40,431 bases of DNA from a virus. The notes under the pieces are model-generated. The model ran no database searches, had not been told where the DNA came from, and saw only the letters and a list, made by a program, of their open reading frames with translations. The translations under genes were made by a program, and so were the position numbers. Shown here piece after piece: positions 3,135 to 40,431 of this stretch (positions are counted from its first letter, which is position 1; every line of letters starts with the position of its first letter). The stretch is taken from the IMG/VR virus record IMGVR_UViG_3300045988_107224; one strand, written 5' to 3'.

Positions 3135-3150
3135 CGTTACTTTTGCAGCG

Positions 3151-3303
3151 ATGTTTAACCCCATAACGGCATCGGGTGATAAGAATTGGGAATAGATTTT
3201 CGTGAGTGGGCATTAAGTTGCTCACTCTCTTTTGTTAGCACATCCTTTCATATTACTTTTATAATACACAGCAGAGCCGCCACTCAGAGGAGTGGCTTTT
3301 TTT
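3151..3303 (+). ncRNA. mini-cassette 4: candidate ~150 nt small RNA
   Basis: TTTG at 3114-3117 and TACTTTTG at 3138-3145. An internal hairpin lies at 3204-3227. The terminator GCCACTC-AGAG-GAGTGGC (3279-3296) is followed by T7. Confidence 0.4.
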
Positions 3304-3376
3304 GTACACTAAAGTTATTTATTTCTTATTTTCGATTTAACGGCACATCACCGCCTAAGTGGTAATTTCCACACAT

Positions 3377-3457
3377 GGCAAATAAAACGCGCTAAAACGG
3401 CAAATAAATGGCTTTGTGCGGAATATAGGCTACAAAGTGGCAAGTATGGTAAATACG
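3377..3457 (+). repeat. second iteron-like set (GGCAAATAAA family)
   Basis: GGCAAATAAA at 3377-3386 and 3399-3408 (22 bp spacing). GGCAAGTATG at 3439-3448 and GGTAAATACG at 3448-3457. Confidence 0.45.
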
Positions 3458-3545
3458 TGTATGCTATATATGCTTGCAAGTACCGTGTATAAGCTGACGC
3501 AAAACAATTATTACATGATGTAGTACATTTATTTTGTTTCAAATT

Positions 3546-3700
3546 TCTAAAACGTGGATTTATTTCCAGCAAACGGAGGAAATTTCTACAAAACTCGGAT
3601 TTTTTTGCAAAAAAACTCTGAAAAAATTTCCGACAAATAATATATATAATAATAGATAATATATATAATATATAAAGAGTACGCGAAAAAGATTTTTCGC
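3546..3700 (+). repeat. origin-like module, copy A (intergenic): 3 iteron-like sites, a 43 bp AT block and a palindrome
   Basis: Iteron-like sites lie at 3549-3567, 3571-3589 and 3616-3634. ACAAATAATATATATAA lies at 3633-3649, the AT block at 3635-3677, and GCGAAAAA-GA-TTTTTCGC at 3683-3700. Confidence 0.6.
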
Positions 3701-3741
3701 TACATACCCTATAAAATAAATGAAAAGTTTTTGCACAAATA

Positions 3742-3773
3742 TTTGGTGCATTAAAATAAAAGTACTATCTTTG
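3742..3773 (+). promoter_or_regulatory. Bacteroides-type promoter for 3815..4321
   Basis: TTTG, 20 nt spacer, TATCTTTG. The imperfect palindrome TGCACAAATATTTGGTGCA (3732-3750) overlaps the -33 element. Confidence 0.6.
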
Positions 3774-3814
3774 CACTATCAATAATAACAAATAACAATC
3801 TAACAACAACAATC

Positions 3815-4428: not shown

Positions 4429-4464
4429 CATCGTAATTAAGAAACAAGTTAAAACAAAAACAAC

Positions 4465-6671: not shown

Positions 6672-7514
6672 ATGGAAGAAATCAAAATCTTTGAAAATGC
6701 TCAGTTTGGGCAAATCCGTACAGCAGTAACCGAAAAAGGCGAACCTTTATTTTGCCTTTCGGATTTGTGCAAGATTTTAGGATTGGGGAACCCAAGCCAA
6801 GCAAAAAAGACCTTACGCAAAGAGGGGGTCATTACTAATGAGGTAGGGGTGACTACAGGTACTAAGGCAAATGGAGAACCCGCTGAACAGGTCATTTCAA
6901 TGAATTTTATCACAGAACCAAATCTTTACAAGTGCATTTTCCAAAGCCGAAAGGAGGTTGCAGAACAGTTCCAAGACTGGGTTTGCGGTGAAGTCTTGCC
7001 GAGCATTCGCAAATCGGGTGGCTACATGGTTGCTAAGGCTGACGAAACGCCCGAACAGCTGATGGCGCGAGCGTTAGAAGTTGCTCACGAAACACTTGCA
7101 AAACGTGATGCAGCCTTACAGCAAGCCGAAACAAAGAATTTTGAATTGCAGTGTGAAAATGAACAGCTAAAGCCTGGAGCAACGTTTGCCAAAGCAGTTG
7201 AAACGTCTAAGCACTCTATATTGGTTGGAGAGCTTGCAAAGATTATCCGACAAAATGGAGTGGAGATTGGGCAAAATAGGCTTTTCGAAGTACTCCGCGA
7301 AAAGGGCTACTTATGCAAAAAGGGCGAAATGTACAACCAGCCCACGCAAAAAGCGCTTGATTTGAAGCTTTTTGAAATTAAGAAGACCGTCATTCAGAAG
7401 CCGAGCGGTGAAACGATTGTTACTACTACAACTAAGGTGACAGGCAAAGGACAGATTTACTTTGTAAACAAGTTTCTCCGCGAACAGCGGAAAAGCCAAA
7501 ATAAGCGCATTTAA
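6672..7514 (+). CDS. Bro-N / KilAC (ANT) antirepressor-family protein
   Basis: The N-terminus IFENAQFGQIRT..GEPLFCLSDLCKILGL is a Bro-N signature. The C-terminus LVGELAKIIRQNGVEIGQNRLFEVLREKGYL is KilAC-like. Confidence 0.85.
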   Translation: MEEIKIFENAQFGQIRTAVTEKGEPLFCLSDLCKILGLGNPSQAKKTLRKEGVITNEVGVTTGTKANGEPAEQVISMNFITEPNLYKCIFQSRKEVAEQFQDWVCGEVLPSIRKSGGYMVAKADETPEQLMARALEVAHETLAKRDAALQQAETKNFELQCENEQLKPGATFAKAVETSKHSILVGELAKIIRQNGVEIGQNRLFEVLREKGYLCKKGEMYNQPTQKALDLKLFEIKKTVIQKPSGETIVTTTTKVTGKGQIYFVNKFLREQRKSQNKRI

Positions 7515-7599
7515 GCGAACCTACAAAAATAAAGGAATAGTTGTCCACTTAGTCGGATAACGTGCCTCAAACGTAAAATCAAGCCAAAATAAAAGCATC

Positions 7600-8316
7600 A
7601 TGAAAGGAAGAATCAAAAGAACACAAGAAGTTAGCCGTGTCGTTTTACCTGTTATTGGGAAAATTAAGGTTGGCATCAAGGAAAAAAGTAGAAACGGAAC
7701 AGAATATCCGAAAAGCGTGGATTACTTTGTAGCAAGTGGAAAGTATGCAGCATTATTCAACGAAGCCTACGGAGATAAGCCTCAAACAATTCAAATCGTT
7801 TTTCCCGACGATAGTCCCGAAAATGTATGCAGTGAGCGTTACGAGTACCGCGATGACAAAGGAGCGTTAATTGCTAGCGGTGATGGCGAAACTTTTAACG
7901 TATGGGACGGCACAAAGTACGTAACGTTGCTTGCCTCTGATTATCCTAACTTGATGCAATCCATACAGCAGCGTTACCCGAGGAGGCACGGCAGACAAGA
8001 TGGCGATAATTGGGACATCGTACTAACAATTACTTTTATCATCCCTTTTGTTCGCGGAGTTGGTGGAGTATGGCAGTTTACCACAAAGGGCGCGGCATCA
8101 ACAATCCCAAACATAAGAGATACATTTGACGCAATGCTGGAACAGCGAGGAAAGGTCCGAGGAGTTATATTTGATTTAAGCGTGCAGTTCGCAAAATCTC
8201 AAAAGCCCGGCACAAACAGCCGTTATCCAGTTGTAACTATTGTTCCTAACGAGAGAGAGGAGAATTTAAAAAAGATTAAAGAAGCGTTTCAGCCTATCAA
8301 ATTAGAAAATAAATAG
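7600..8316 (+). CDS. hypothetical protein (from memory, weak resemblance to the phiC31 gp3-like family found in phage replication modules)
   Basis: Long ORF with good coding character. The pattern IGKIKVG..(N)..P.S.DYF....(N)..YGDKP..I.I.FP is only a recollection, not a search result. Confidence 0.7.
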   Translation: MKGRIKRTQEVSRVVLPVIGKIKVGIKEKSRNGTEYPKSVDYFVASGKYAALFNEAYGDKPQTIQIVFPDDSPENVCSERYEYRDDKGALIASGDGETFNVWDGTKYVTLLASDYPNLMQSIQQRYPRRHGRQDGDNWDIVLTITFIIPFVRGVGGVWQFTTKGAASTIPNIRDTFDAMLEQRGKVRGVIFDLSVQFAKSQKPGTNSRYPVVTIVPNEREENLKKIKEAFQPIKLENK

Positions 8317-8329
8317 TACATTTGCATAC

Positions 8330-8416
8330 GTGATTTGTAAGAAAATAGTTTCATCCATATATCTGAATTCTTAACCTATGCCGCATTGTCGTGATGATAA
8401 CGCGGCATATTTTTTT
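8330..8416 (+). ncRNA. mini-cassette 5 (family A copy 1): candidate ~85 nt small RNA
   Basis: TACATTTG at 8317-8324. An extended hairpin at 8378-8408 has loop GTGAT and is followed by T7 at 8410-8416. Confidence 0.4.
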
Positions 8417-8449
8417 GTTATTACGCGGTATATTATTATATTTGCACAA

Positions 8450-8537
8450 TTCATCAATGGATATTCGATTTTTAAGTTTTGCTTTTTTTGAATTACACTA
8501 ACTGAGCCGCATTGTCGTGATGATAACGCGGTTTTTT
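8450..8537 (+). ncRNA. mini-cassette 6 (family A copy 2): candidate ~85 nt small RNA
   Basis: TTTG at 8414-8417 and TATATTTG at 8437-8444. The hairpin at 8507-8531 is identical over 25 nt to 8381-8405 and is followed by T6. Confidence 0.4.
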
Positions 8538-8583
8538 GATAAGCGTAATTTATATTCCGTAATGCCTACGGAGATTTGGTTAT

Positions 8584-8633
8584 TTCATGGTTGATTGTTA
8601 GCCGCCTTTTCAGTGATGATAGGGCGGTTTTTT
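8584..8633 (+). ncRNA. mini-cassette 7 (family A, diverged copy): candidate small RNA with an unclear promoter
   Basis: The hairpin at 8602-8627 (CCGCC...GTGATGAT...GGCGG) is followed by T6. The only upstream box is the weak GAGATTTG at 8571-8578. Confidence 0.25.
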
Positions 8634-8679
8634 GTATTAAAATTTGAATTGAAAAGGAAATATTACTATCTTCGCAGCG

Positions 8680-8745
8680 TGTAACAAAGAAGTAGTGTTT
8701 TTGTTTTAGCTTGGCGCACAGCCCAAAGGACTGCGCGTTTTTTTT
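8680..8745 (+). ncRNA. mini-cassette 8: candidate ~65 nt small RNA
   Basis: TTTG at 8643-8646 and TATCTTCG at 8667-8674. An imperfect GC hairpin at 8714-8736 is followed by T8. Confidence 0.3.
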
Positions 8746-8791
8746 GTTTGTTGTTGGCTGAAATTAAAAAATAATACGTATCTTTGCAATC

Positions 8792-8849
8792 GATTTATGC
8801 TTAATGTAGTAGCGTTGTCCCATGAGAGTGGGGCAGCGCATTTTTTTTT
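8792..8849 (+). ncRNA. mini-cassette 9: candidate ~60 nt small RNA
   Basis: TATCTTTG at 8779-8786. An 11 bp hairpin (8812-8822 pairs with 8829-8839) is followed by T9 at 8841-8849. Confidence 0.35.
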
Positions 8850-8869
8850 GAAAAAATATTCGCAAATCC

Positions 8870-8900
8870 TTTGTTATATTATGAAAAATTACTACTTTTG
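8870..8900 (+). promoter_or_regulatory. Bacteroides-type promoter for the replication genes (8931..)
   Basis: TTTG, 19 nt spacer, TACTTTTG. Confidence 0.55.
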
Positions 8901-8930
8901 CAGTATCACAAAAAAATAAAACAACAGCCT

Positions 8931-9215
8931 ATGGAAAAAGGATTTATATTGCGCATTGACTTCGTAGAGAAGTTTGGTTTTTCAGGTACGACATTAGTAT
9001 TGGTGTCGTTGCTCGTAGATGCATTGCAGAAAGGCGACGGTTGGCTTACGATGCAACAGGATGAAATAGCTAAAATGCTTGGCATTTCATCAGCCCGTGT
9101 AAATCAAATCTTTCGAATATTGAAAAGAGGAGGGTTTCTCCTGCAAAAGAAAGCAACAGGAAGAAAATATAGAAATAGAAAAGAATACAAGTTTAACGAA
9201 GAAAAATTAAAGTAA
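8931..9215 (+). CDS. winged-helix / HTH DNA-binding protein
   Basis: DEIAKMLGISSARVNQIFRILKRGGFL. The ATG at 8931 is preferred because a promoter (8870-8873 / 8893-8900) lies inside the TTG-extended ORF 8871. Confidence 0.6.
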   Translation: MEKGFILRIDFVEKFGFSGTTLVLVSLLVDALQKGDGWLTMQQDEIAKMLGISSARVNQIFRILKRGGFLLQKKATGRKYRNRKEYKFNEEKLK

Positions 9216-9216
9216 T

Positions 9217-10092
9217 ATGAAGTACTATATTAACATAAATCAGAAATTCTCCGTAGAACACGGCTTAAATACGTCTGAATCGATTGTTTTTGCATGGCTG
9301 TACGAGTTGCCGTCATGGGCAGAAAGCATCTTAATAGGCAATAAAACATACTATTTCGGCAGCCGCAACAAGGCGGCGGCAGAGTTGCCACTTATAAGCG
9401 ACAAGCCGAATACGTTTCAGAAACTTTACAAGAAGTTAGAGGCAAAAGGGCTTATTGAGATTATCAAGATTGGCAAGGCTGAATACATAGCAATAACAGA
9501 CCTCGGAAAGGGGTGGTATTTATCCAGCGGAGAGCCAAAAAAGGAAGCACCAAAAAGCGAGAAAAAAATCCAAAACGAGGAAAATTTTCCACAAACGGCA
9601 GAAAAATCCTCAGAAATCGGGAAAAATTTCTCAAAAAACGAGGAAAATTTTCCTACAAATAATATATATAAGAATAATATAAATAATAATATAATATATA
9701 GAAGTCGCGAAAAAGAATTTTCGCAACACTCTCAACAAAATGGAGAGGTTGTGGAGTCTGAAATTATTGAGACTAAAGAGCTGAAAGGCGAGGGCGCAAA
9801 AAGGTTGTTTCGAAGTTTTTTTGCTGAAATAGATAAAGGCACTTATGACGAGCTTAACGCTCTGTTTAATGCCGAAGAGTATGCCGATATAAACTTAGTG
9901 TATTATTACCATGCTGTTGCAGACTGGAGCGACAGCGCAAACAAAAAGAGGACAAAGCGAGGATGGATTGCCACGATTAGAAACTTTATAAAATCAGACA
10001 AGGAAAAGGGTAAACTGCACACTATAAGTGCGGAACTATTTAAAGAGCAAATCAAAGTCAAACCAGAAGACTACTTAACATTAGACCTATGA
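9217..10092 (+). CDS. putative replication initiator / replisome organiser (N-terminal winged helix) carrying an internal iteron plus AT-rich module
   Basis: N-terminal wHTH-like domain. The low-complexity linker NEENFP..NEENFPTNNIYKNNINNNIIY is encoded by iterons and an AT block (9568-9724), a lambda O-like arrangement. Confidence 0.55.
   Translation: MKYYININQKFSVEHGLNTSESIVFAWLYELPSWAESILIGNKTYYFGSRNKAAAELPLISDKPNTFQKLYKKLEAKGLIEIIKIGKAEYIAITDLGKGWYLSSGEPKKEAPKSEKKIQNEENFPQTAEKSSEIGKNFSKNEENFPTNNIYKNNINNNIIYRSREKEFSQHSQQNGEVVESEIIETKELKGEGAKRLFRSFFAEIDKGTYDELNALFNAEEYADINLVYYYHAVADWSDSANKKRTKRGWIATIRNFIKSDKEKGKLHTISAELFKEQIKVKPEDYLTLDL
9568..9724 (+). repeat. origin-like module, copy B (inside CDS 9217..10092)
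   Basis: AAAACGAGGAAAATTTTCC occurs at 9572-9590 and 9635-9653 (63 bp apart), with a degenerate site at 9619-9632. ACAAATAATATATATAA lies at 9655-9671, followed by an AT block and GCGAAAAAGAATTTTCGC at 9707-9724. Confidence 0.6.
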
Positions 10093-12826: not shown

Positions 12827-12852
12827 CAGCGTTGAACAAATAAAACAAAAAC

Positions 12853-13089
12853 ATGGAATTAAGTAGTTATCTTATTGACGTTTACGCTTATAGAAAGCGA
12901 CCCGACGGAGTTATTTGGCTCTATGCAAATATGCCAAAATACTCAGAAATTTTTGAGGATTATATTGATAGTTCAGTTATCGGAGTGCTAAAAGAGGGTG
13001 ACCTTGAAGCGTTAGGGCTTACACCCGAAATGGTAACAGGAAAGCCTTGTTTGGTAAGTGGTACGAAAATTAAAATATCATTCGAATGA
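12853..13089 (+). CDS. hypothetical protein
   Basis: ATG downstream of the promoter 12796-12799 / 12819-12826. Confidence 0.6.
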   Translation: MELSSYLIDVYAYRKRPDGVIWLYANMPKYSEIFEDYIDSSVIGVLKEGDLEALGLTPEMVTGKPCLVSGTKIKISFE

Positions 13090-26112: not shown

Positions 26113-27210
26113 ATGAGTTTAGTAGCAACAAGATTGCAGAATTGGAGAGTATCAAACCCCGAACTCGACCGAAACAGCACGCGCCCTTGCGAATATGGCG
26201 CGCTTAACTTCTTCGTGCGCGAAACCAATTCGCCGATTTCGATTATTAGCCAAAACCTTAAAGACAAGGCTTTCGCGTCGATTGGCAACACATTGCAAGT
26301 GCCCGTAATTGACACCGATGGCGAGGTGAACGTAGCAAGCACGCGAACTTGCACCATTGCTGACGATGATAATACGTCGTCGCTGTATACCGTTGTTTGG
26401 CAGACTCTGCAAGTTGGCTTTACGATGGTTCCCGCCTCTTATTCTAACAACGAAATTGGCTACCAACATGACTACAACCGCAAAATGGAAAAGGTTTGCC
26501 GCGCGTTGGCAAACAAACTTGACGAAAAGGCGGTTGCAGCCCTTGAAGCCGCGAAGACGCAAGTGCTTAAAGACAAACTTAACTACAAATTTGCCGCAAA
26601 TGTAGTTAAGGCAAAACGCGAGATGGCTGGCGACCTTTTAGGCGATTTGGGCACGATGATGCGTTCGAACTGCTTTTACCGTCAGATTAACGTGATTGGT
26701 AACGGTGGCATTGATAGCCTTGTGCGCAAGTTGGCACAGCATGGAGTTTACAACGACACCAACAAGCAAAACGAGTACATGGATAAAGTTTTCCACTTTA
26801 CCAACAACGTAACAAACGAAGTAGGCCAAAACGGCACTTTGTTCGCGGTTGAAAGTGGTAACGTCGGTGTGCTCACTCGTGTAGACCGAGAAGCACTTCG
26901 CGGAGCTAAATCCAATGGCCACGAATGGGGTGTAACGCGTTTGCCCTACATTGATTTGCCCGTTGGTTATCACTATTATACAGCAGTAGGTGACCAATCT
27001 TCAACCAATGGCGATGCTACGGCAGACCTCGTTTGCGGTGTAAAAGAGTACTTCGGCTTTTCTATGGACGTCGCGTTTGTCATTGCGCACAACAGCGCGC
27101 CCGCGACTTACGCAAACCCGATTATCAAGGCGCAGATTGCAGCAGCTGCAAAAAATCAGCCCTTTGCAACCCCTGTATTTGTCGTAAACGGAGGCGGTGT
27201 AGGCGCGTAA
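26113..27210 (+). CDS. putative major capsid protein
   Basis: 365 aa, follows the scaffold gene and is followed by a strong terminator (27232-27266). Positional inference only. Confidence 0.6.
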   Translation: MSLVATRLQNWRVSNPELDRNSTRPCEYGALNFFVRETNSPISIISQNLKDKAFASIGNTLQVPVIDTDGEVNVASTRTCTIADDDNTSSLYTVVWQTLQVGFTMVPASYSNNEIGYQHDYNRKMEKVCRALANKLDEKAVAALEAAKTQVLKDKLNYKFAANVVKAKREMAGDLLGDLGTMMRSNCFYRQINVIGNGGIDSLVRKLAQHGVYNDTNKQNEYMDKVFHFTNNVTNEVGQNGTLFAVESGNVGVLTRVDREALRGAKSNGHEWGVTRLPYIDLPVGYHYYTAVGDQSSTNGDATADLVCGVKEYFGFSMDVAFVIAHNSAPATYANPIIKAQIAAAAKNQPFATPVFVVNGGGVGA

Positions 27211-27231: not shown

Positions 27232-27266
27232 GGGGAGTTGGGATAAATTCCCGACCCCCTTTTTTT
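27232..27266 (+). terminator. intrinsic terminator after the putative major capsid gene
   Basis: 11 bp stem with one bulge (27232-27243 pairs with 27249-27259) followed by T7. Confidence 0.65.
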
Positions 27267-39989: not shown

Positions 39990-40431
39990 ATTCAACATAG
40001 AACAGATACGCATTATTGCGGTAACTATGATTACAACGGTATTAGGTTACATATCCCCAACAAATGGGTATGTGATTAGCCTAATTATAATGTTTGCGCT
40101 AAACATATTCGCAGGCATGAGGGCGGACGGAGTTTCGATTGTTAAATGCAAAAACTTTTCGTTTCGAAAATTCAAAAATTCGCTCGTTGAGTTTCTTTTG
40201 TACTTGCTAATCATCGAAACAATTTTCGCCGTCATGCACTCGTGCGGAGATGGTGCCGCAGCACTAATAGCCGTAAAGTCGGTAACGTATGTGTTTGTGT
40301 ACGTGTACGCTCAGAACGCGCTAAAAAACCTTATCTACGCTTACCCCGATATAATTGCCTTGCGCATATTGTATCATGCTGTAAGATTTGAGTTTAAGCG
40401 AGCTTTGCCCTCACATATCAAGCCGATAGTC
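39982..40431 (+). CDS. holin-like multi-pass membrane protein, 5' part (continues at 2..109; 167 aa in total)
   Basis: The ATG at 39982 overlaps the fibre stop (AATGGATAA). The frame is open to the window end. It has about 4 hydrophobic segments and sits immediately upstream of the endolysin on the circular map. Confidence 0.6.
   Translation, partial: MDKFNIEQIRIIAVTMITTVLGYISPTNGYVISLIIMFALNIFAGMRADGVSIVKCKNFSFRKFKNSLVEFLLYLLIIETIFAVMHSCGDGAAALIAVKSVTYVFVYVYAQNALKNLIYAYPDIIALRILYHAVRFEFKRALPSHIKPIV
40377..40431. repeat. terminal direct repeat, right copy (identical to 1-55)
   Basis: 55/55 identity. The length is typical of a k-mer overlap in a circular assembly. Confidence 0.95.

Follow-up and report, generated by a model that had tools for sequence, protein, structure and literature searches.

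Putative transcription units between positions 8317 and 8849

The sequence analysed here, referred to at its full length as the window, is the 40,431-nucleotide (nt) virus record IMGVR_UViG_3300045988_107224 of IMG/VR, and the subject of this analysis is the segment at positions 8317-8849. This segment, which we call the array, holds five short units in series (cassettes 1 to 5) and is probably a dense group of small non-coding RNA genes, specific to one clade, in a gut siphophage of Bacteroidales, a reading that we base on comparative sequence analysis. Its left border is a Gp3-like gene (recombination-directionality-factor-like, PF18897) on the + strand, with its stop codon at 8314-8316. The next real gene on the right, also on the + strand, is a winged-helix/RepL-like gene at 8931-9215, which encodes a helix-turn-helix (HTH) protein of 94 amino acids (aa) with weak matches to RepL, DnaD_N and HTH_Crp_2.

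The initial annotation described the array as free of open reading frames (ORFs) of 60 aa or more on either strand, and this holds: with both strands considered, the longest ORF wholly within 8317-8849 is 37 aa. Two ORFs overlap the 3' end of the array, one of 40 aa at 8797-8919 and one of 33 aa on the - strand at 8764-8865, and no ORF longer than 40 aa is found on either strand between 8316 and 8931. The frames of the few short ORFs in the array are broken by 1-nt insertions and deletions among the relatives described below; as these changes, in T-runs, shift every candidate frame, a small-ORF reading of the array was ruled out. A search for tRNA and tmRNA genes found none.

Five terminators were identified on the + strand with a uniform criterion, a T-run of at least five residues preceded by a single stable hairpin. 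These are terminator 1 (8377-8416, folding energy dG -16.8, 7 T), terminator 2 (8507-8537, dG -9.4, 6 T), terminator 3 (8602-8633, dG -13.7, 6 T), terminator 4 (8715-8745, dG -8.7, 8 T) and terminator 5 (8812-8849, dG -22.1, 9 T), all within one base of the positions first reported for them. Under a stricter criterion the 40.4-kb sequence contains 10 strong + strand terminators, 5 of them within these 533 nt (1.3% of the sequence), where an even spread would place approximately 0.13. A second terminator scan recovered three of the five and gave 5 sites in 7500-9500, compared with 1.8 +/- 1.6 in shuffled sequences.

The four -7 boxes of Bacteroides type listed in the initial annotation are likewise present on the + strand. 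P1 (TACATTTG, 8317-8324) lies directly 3' of the stop codon of the Gp3-like gene and is kept as TAyyTTTG in most relatives that bear cassette 1, with CACCTTTG in one of them (L013). P2 has its -7 box TATATTTG at 8437-8444 and a -33 TTTG at 8414-8417, separated by a 19-nt spacer, and P4 combines a -33 TTTG at 8643-8646 with the box TATCTTCG at 8667-8674 over a 20-nt spacer. The P4 box is one base off the TAnnTTTG consensus (TTCG) and is kept in most relatives, with TACCTTTG in two. P5 has the box TATCTTTG at 8779-8786, and the boxes of P2 and P5 are likewise conserved in relatives. The right-hand border of the cluster is formed by the promoter of the HTH gene, also on the + strand, with a -33 TTTG at 8870-8873 and the -7 box TACTTTTG at 8893-8900; a -33 TTTG thus stands 19-20 nt 5' of three boxes, those of P2, P4 and the HTH gene. 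Genome-wide, TAnnTTTGC occurs 26 times (15.6 +/- 3.6 in shuffles), with 22 copies on the + strand, which carries nearly all genes, and 4 on the - strand. Thirteen of the 22 + strand copies are intergenic, though intergenic DNA makes up only ~10% of the genome. Because of this excess and the bias to the + strand and to intergenic DNA, the TAnnTTTG boxes are read as real promoters of the Bacteroides σABfr type, which is how their distribution makes them behave.

Every candidate RNA folds as an open 5' region followed by the terminator hairpin. Cassette 1 would yield an RNA of ~88 nt (8329-8416, from a presumed start) with an unstructured 5' part and terminator 1, and cassette 2 a predicted RNA of ~89 nt (8449-8537) ending at terminator 2. 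The cassette 3 segment (8538-8633) has no promoter of its own; it contains a small conserved hairpin (8555-8573) and a 28-nt block, GGAGATTTGGTTATTTCATGGTTGATTG (8570-8597), that is invariant in 15 of 16 aligned sequences, and it ends at terminator 3. The predicted RNA of cassette 4 is ~67 nt long (8679-8745), with a 5' body at 8679-8714 followed by terminator 4, and that of cassette 5 ~59 nt long (8791-8849), with a short 5' part and the 12-bp terminator 5.

Although the units follow each other in series, as the term tandem array implied, they are not sequence repeats. The program TRF found no tandem repeat in 8200-9000, and paralogy is confined to hairpins 1-3 (z = 7-15), of which the first two agree at every position over 26 nt and the third has 65% identity to both. 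The 5' bodies are unrelated, and cassettes 4 and 5 have nothing in common with the others. A reading of the GUGAUGA of hairpins 1-3 as a K-turn or C-box was ruled out by GAGA, GCGA or GUGA loops in relatives. Such loops occur in cassettes 1 and 2 of the relatives without UGAUGA, which is consistent with a GNRA-type loop on a terminator stem.

Conservation and turnover among related phages

Relatives were collected by way of 21 clusters of HTH-protein homologues (68-100% identity), which led to 19 contigs in the Logan and ENA assemblies; with the GenBank scaffold MT836526 these make 20 related contigs and 17 distinct versions of the array, and 16 sequences were aligned. In 20 of 20 contigs the Gp3-like and HTH genes lie 413-697 nt apart, and the ORF-free DNA between them contains the same units. 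Cassettes 3, 4 and 5 are present in all 17 versions, and cassettes 1 and 2 vary in copy number. Cassette 1 is missing from MT836526, L009 and L010, which have a promoter-to-promoter junction in its place, and its slot holds a different 5' body in L007, L011 and L017, with two copies in L011. L019 has the cassette 1 body fused to hairpin 3 and has lost cassettes 2-3. Overall, the hairpin 1-3 module occurs in 1 to 4 copies among close relatives. Because hairpins 1-3 are paralogous while their 5' bodies are unrelated, the common terminator of cassettes 1-3 appears to be a recombination handle; recombination between these terminator modules would add, remove or swap 5' bodies.

More distant relatives (PDS1, BKO1-3 and one IMG/VR contig) have the Gp3-like gene followed almost directly by the replication-initiator gene. 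As the two flanking genes are near-adjacent there, we take the array and the small HTH gene to be a clade-specific insertion. The HTH gene is confined to the clade of the window and always lies directly 3' of the array; its product may be a regulator of the RNA cluster or of replication. Whole-genome scans of the isolates Parabacteroides phage PDS1 (L026) and Bacteroides phage BKO1-3 (L027) found no short cassettes. These genomes have about as many TAnnTTTG boxes as the window and almost no strong intrinsic terminators, and by this comparison with PDS1 and BKO1-3 the units resembling small RNA (sRNA) genes are a trait of the window's clade only. Neither IMG/VR, queried with two invariant DNA probes and the HTH protein, nor the JGI metagenomes, searched with the cassette 4 probe, gave a match. 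A search of 185,579 GTDB representative genomes with the HTH profile and the cassette 4 probe also gave none, and therefore provided no prophage copy, host homologue or host assignment.

Selection on the nucleotide sequence is seen in cassette 4. Nine of nine relatives match the window at every base of its 36-nt body (8679-8714), while their flanking genes have 61-85% identity at third codon positions and 82-99% at the first two, and a 20-nt core, AAGTAGTGTTTTTGTTTTAG, is identical in all 16 sequences. Beside the body, the hairpin is only 74-77% identical and the promoter region 61-97%; because these adjacent parts diverge, a recent sweep cannot explain the invariance.

The terminator stems are conserved in a different way. 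With the structure that we specified, 97.7% of the alignment cells form standard pairs, compared with only 32-54% when the pairing partners were slid by 1-3 columns as a control. Both sides have changed in three pairs, one in hairpin 3 (U-A to C-G), one in hairpin 4 (U·G to A-U) and one in hairpin 5 (C-G to U-A), a number equalled in 1 of 500 shuffles. The sequence of terminator 4 varies while its pairing is kept. RNAalifold recovered the same three terminators without guidance. The stems thus keep their pairing through compensatory and G·U changes, where lack of hairpin conservation or covariation had been named in the initial annotation as an outcome that would count against RNA function. 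In 16 of 16 sequences hairpin 3 has an unchanged inner stem and GUGA loop, whereas the loop sequence is free to vary in hairpins 4 and 5.

These observations bear on the notion that the units are functionless or vestigial, either insertions of the 'RNA moron' kind or decayed gene remnants kept by linkage. Such an origin would suit the absence of the block from the distant relatives, where the Gp3-like gene abuts the initiator gene, and the dispensability of cassette 1 in several relatives. It is nevertheless scarcely credible in view of the 36-nt invariance beside diverging flanks, the compensatory changes in the stems and the retention of cassettes 3-5 in 17 of 17 distinct versions.

The stems have many U·G pairs, four of them in hairpin 5 alone, and since the other strand would have A·C mismatches in their place, the constraint acts on the + strand transcript. 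This strand dependence, together with T-runs on one strand only, points to constraint on RNA and not on duplex DNA, and so speaks against a DNA-level element, that is, a replication origin or operator in which the hairpin repeat serves as an iteron for the adjacent HTH/Rep proteins. The array is indeed A+T-rich, lies directly 5' of the HTH/RepL-like and initiator-like genes and has three copies of a 26-nt repeat. However, the repeats are spaced by 126 and 96 nt, unlike helical-phase iterons, cassettes 4 and 5 have no repeat in common, and the GC skew is uniformly positive with no origin signal, making an origin or operator very unlikely.

Candidate small RNAs and alternative readings

The conserved promoters and single-stranded bodies, the strand-specific, compensated hairpins and the lack of coding potential are the grounds on which we read the array as sRNA genes, and of the interpretations first offered the comparative evidence favours that of small regulatory RNA loci. 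Host RNA polymerase with a housekeeping sigma factor of the σABfr type would start at the TAnnTTTG boxes, make 20-60 nt of largely unstructured RNA and stop at a G+C-rich hairpin and U-tract. The products would be RNAs of ~88, 89, 67 and 59 nt, and a read-through isoform of ~185 nt covering cassettes 2 and 3. By analogy with characterised sRNAs, the single-stranded 5' parts probably serve as seeds: by pairing with A/C-rich initiation regions of mRNAs from the phage and/or the host, they would keep ribosomes from loading. In two small phage genes the initiation region is predicted to be covered by the invariant seed of cassette 4, UGUUUUUGUUUUA.

The initial annotation counted five independent transcripts. 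Cassettes 1, 2, 4 and 5 have their own boxes, and the number of transcripts is probably four. The U-tract of terminator 2 is interrupted in 9 of the 15 relatives that have this terminator (UUUAUUUG, UUUUGCAAA or UAUUUUG), and the terminator is probably leaky in many of them. Because of this interruption, and because no relative has a promoter for cassette 3, we take cassette 3 to extend cassette 2, probably as the downstream portion of a single RNA of ~185 nt that spans both. The simplest reading is therefore one of four promoters, with P2 giving both the ~89-nt RNA and the ~185-nt read-through form that carries the invariant block of cassette 3.

Units of this kind occur elsewhere in the genome. 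The 40.4-kb window is a complete genome, circularly permuted or terminally redundant, as bases 1-53 are identical to 40379-40431; one gene spans the junction of its ends. The terminase is ~68% identical to those of Parabacteroides, Bacteroides and Alistipes siphophages and ~55% to those of Bacteroides fragilis siphophages. Nine of the ten strong + strand terminators end short ORF-free cassettes. The tenth (27232-27266, dG -18.8) lies directly 3' of a gene at 26113-27210 that, by its position, is probably the major capsid gene. On the + strand at 108-350, between the end of the junction-spanning gene and the endolysin gene (381-962) and just 5' of the latter, is a set of three cassettes of promoter, short RNA and terminator, here array A, with -7 boxes starting at 115, 186 and 266 and terminators at 156-184, 232-263 and 325-348. 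Its column identity is 94% across eight clade members. The hexamer CATGAG is found in three of the eight short cassettes (150-155, 222-227 and 8822-8827), in two of them just 5' of a terminator stem and in the third within the hairpin 5 loop; the copy in the first of these cassettes is not universal in relatives.

A single ORF-free unit of ~150 nt (cassette B) lies at 3138-3303 on the + strand, with a TACTTTTG box at 3138 and a terminator at 3279-3303. Its internal hairpin, GTGAGTGGGCATTAAGTTGCTCACTC, is invariant and the unit is kept in all relatives examined, making it a candidate for a larger structured non-coding RNA. A separate A+T-rich, ORF-poor gap at 3304-3814 has an A/T-only repeat (ATAATATAT, ~4 copies, 3637-3675), with a promoter at 3766. 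As the site of a DNA-unwinding element, an origin or a regulatory hub, this gap is a stronger candidate than the array.

Eight seeds were compared with approximately 50 phage translation-initiation regions, using RNAduplex energies and longest exact matches. The cassette 4 seed has two perfect 13-nt matches in the phage (TAAAACAAAAACA), and both are in translation-initiation regions. The first predicted pairing site, at 4445-4462 on the + strand, would form an 18-bp duplex (dG -22.2) and places the 13-nt match at -15 to -3 relative to the ATG (4465) of a gene for 68 aa. The second, at 12841-12853 on the + strand, overlaps the start codon of a 78-aa gene (ATG 12853). Function annotation of the two predicted target genes found no known function. 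Dinucleotide shuffles of the seed gave a mean of 0.008 initiation-region 13-nt matches per shuffle, and two matches in 0 of 2000. In most relatives the match extends to 14 nt, and site 2 is invariant in all relatives. The longest-match tests were not significant, save marginally for cassette 4 and for cassette 1 of array A. The latter also had the lowest duplex-energy P, 0.02, uncorrected for eight tests.

Several points weigh against the reading of the array as sRNA genes with such targets. The RNAduplex energies are mostly not significant (P ~0.1 for cassette 4), and the single-match P for cassette 4 is only ~0.06 after correction for eight seeds. Site 1 is substituted in two relatives while the seed is unchanged, and both sites share one 13-mer and so are non-independent. 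Because of this shared 13-mer and the testing of eight seeds, we treat the matches in the two phage initiation regions as a lead only, short of evidence for regulation. A TAnnTTTG box for cassette 3 is absent from the window and from every relative, the transcription start sites were guessed from box positions, Rfam searched with the whole window at gathering thresholds returned no match, and 16-17 fairly close sequences limit the power of the covariation analysis. We infer the transcription of the cassettes and the ends of the RNAs from signals in the DNA, and trans-acting base-pairing and target identity from the analogy with known sRNAs.

The five terminators in series, placed along the direction of transcription just 5' of the replication module, had also suggested a cis-acting barrier. 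They would insulate the left operon from the replication genes, a phage antiterminator would be needed to pass them, and the short RNAs would be by-products. The weakness of terminator 2 in many relatives would fit such an arrangement, as would a helix of ~21 bp that RNAalifold predicts between the A-rich P4 region and the U-rich cassette 4 seed (8641-8714; alignment columns 137-192), which is possible only in a transcript that reads through terminator 3. This helix has zero compensatory changes, however, and was set aside as probably reflecting mere A-rich versus U-rich composition. Only one of the five terminators lacks a conserved promoter after it, and a full -33/-7 promoter stands before the HTH/replication genes themselves. 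Moreover, the promoter-to-terminator bodies are conserved beyond coding DNA, which an insulator would not need, and the same kind of cassette also occurs before the endolysin gene and elsewhere. Pfam and PHROG scans of eight flanking genes, which were not a systematic search, turned up no antiterminator or nut/put-like element. A barrier that requires processive antitermination is disfavoured by these results, and we consider it improbable.

Alternatively, the cassettes could be real transcripts that bind proteins, serving as decoys that titrate a defence component or an RNA-binding protein of the host, such as the RRM protein RbpB, instead of pairing with mRNAs. A terminator alone would not require the invariance of the hairpin 3 inner stem and GUGA loop, the variation of the hairpin 1-3 module between 1 and 4 copies resembles a dosage or arms-race trait, and FopS-type sRNAs are RbpB ligands (PMC11697453). 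The Rfam scans, however, showed no similarity to CRISPR repeats or known decoy RNAs. An RNA anti-CRISPR or mimic of a CRISPR repeat is not supported, as the only match, in a comparison made without host repeats, was to CRISPR-DR26 at 15.7 bits (threshold 39), on the opposite strand and in a spacer. A mimic of a type III antitoxin (pseudo-ToxI) is not supported either, as it needs head-to-tail repeats of ~34-36 nt and TRF found none in 8200-9000. The strongest conservation, furthermore, is in the unstructured 5' segments, which suits seeds more than protein-binding structures. The invariant hairpin 3 and the copy-number variation fit the decoy RNAs first suggested best, the likeness to CRISPR repeats and ToxI is absent, and on balance we regard decoys as unlikely.

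Returning to the sRNA-gene reading, a more speculative extension, to which we give little weight, is that the phage carries a modular arsenal of ~9 sRNAs in three clusters. The GNRA-capped terminator module of the main cluster would be the handle by which 5' seeds are swapped, duplicated or lost between co-circulating phages, the sRNAs would redirect translation in the host or inactivate one of its defence or RNA-binding proteins, and the copy number of cassettes 1-2 would record an ongoing arms race. Should this hold, it would be the first description in Bacteroidales phages of a host take-over based on sRNAs. Most likely, to judge from the sequence comparisons, the array represents new sRNA families in a host-phage group without characterised ones; in the literature searched, neither such an sRNA cluster nor RNA regulators have been described for gut Bacteroidales phages, an abundant group. 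Post-transcriptional control in Bacteroidota has opened up only recently, with GibS, FopS and RbpB. If expressed, the ~9 small RNAs in three clusters would take up ~2% of a 40-kb genome, far denser than the examples in a recent review (PMC12197685), in stretches that gene callers leave blank. The conserved 20-36-nt seed of cassette 4 offers an entry point to the control of phage early genes or host translation, the units are compact, well-delimited promoter-terminator parts for Bacteroides, and the variable cassette 1/2 slot is a possible strain marker.

Comparison with known small RNA systems

All cassettes score below threshold for every Rfam family, and permissive scans of the three cassette regions gave only sub-threshold, chance-level matches. 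The best scores were those of cassette 5 against FopS (20.6 bits, threshold 56) and BTnc049 (20.4 bits, threshold 81.9), and these rest on the terminator and U-tract. The other cassettes had no match to RF04319 (FopS/GibS) at E <= 10 (8250-8950) or E <= 5 (array A and cassette B). Only fragments of the R1/R1' seed of FopS/GibS (consensus GUGUUUUUCAUGGUAUUAGAU) were found, GUGUUUUU in cassette 4 and UUUCAUGG in cassette 3, and local-alignment z-scores of the cassettes against the FopS consensus were 3.4 or lower.

The GibS/FopS sRNAs of Bacteroides have a σABfr promoter, a length of ~65-70 nt, a single-stranded 5' seed and a terminator; the seed pairs at the start-codon region and blocks translation, and the RNAs are bound by RbpB (PMC11697453). 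A FopS sequence reported in one Caudovirales metagenome-assembled genome (PMC11697453) shows that sRNA genes can be carried by phages of this host group. Cassettes 4 (67 nt) and 5 (59 nt) resemble GibS/FopS (RF04319; PMC11697453, PMC7366714) in their TAnnTTTG promoter, their size and their open 5' part followed by a terminator. GibS and FopS also form multi-copy families with U/G-rich seeds that pair at A-rich start-codon regions, as proposed here. In contrast, no cassette is homologous to GibS/FopS, and FopS genes are scattered in bacterial chromosomes whereas the units of the window are packed head-to-tail in a phage. By analogy, we infer that the cassettes work like GibS/FopS-type sRNAs without belonging to the family.

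Loci of sibling sRNAs in bacteria, such as Listeria LhrC1-5, OmrA/B and PrrF1/2, have genes side by side with their own promoters and terminators, partly duplicated. Of these, OmrA/B are also cited in the GibS/FopS work (PMC11697453). Siblings have their seeds in common, whereas the array has a terminator in common (hairpins 1-3) and unrelated 5' bodies. Phage morons are autonomous promoter-gene-terminator insertions in lambdoid phages. The array is likewise an insertion, with its own promoters and terminators, between genes that are adjacent in relatives, but its cargo is non-coding RNA multiplied in tandem and not a protein gene.

Among the phage and prophage sRNAs reviewed in 2025 are lambda OOP, DicF, AgvB/AsxR, IsrK and STnc6030; neither Bacteroides phages nor tandem clusters are mentioned in that review (PMC12197685). 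The likeness to OOP, DicF and the others lies in autonomous promoter-sRNA-terminator units on phage genomes, some of them beside replication or immunity genes. The lambda OOP gene, for instance, sits between cII and O. These known sRNAs are single genes, mostly of temperate enterobacterial phages and often antisense or Hfq-dependent, and Bacteroidales hosts are, to our knowledge, without Hfq. The window differs from them in having 4-5 sense-oriented units in tandem, and ~9 per genome, in a phage of Bacteroidales.

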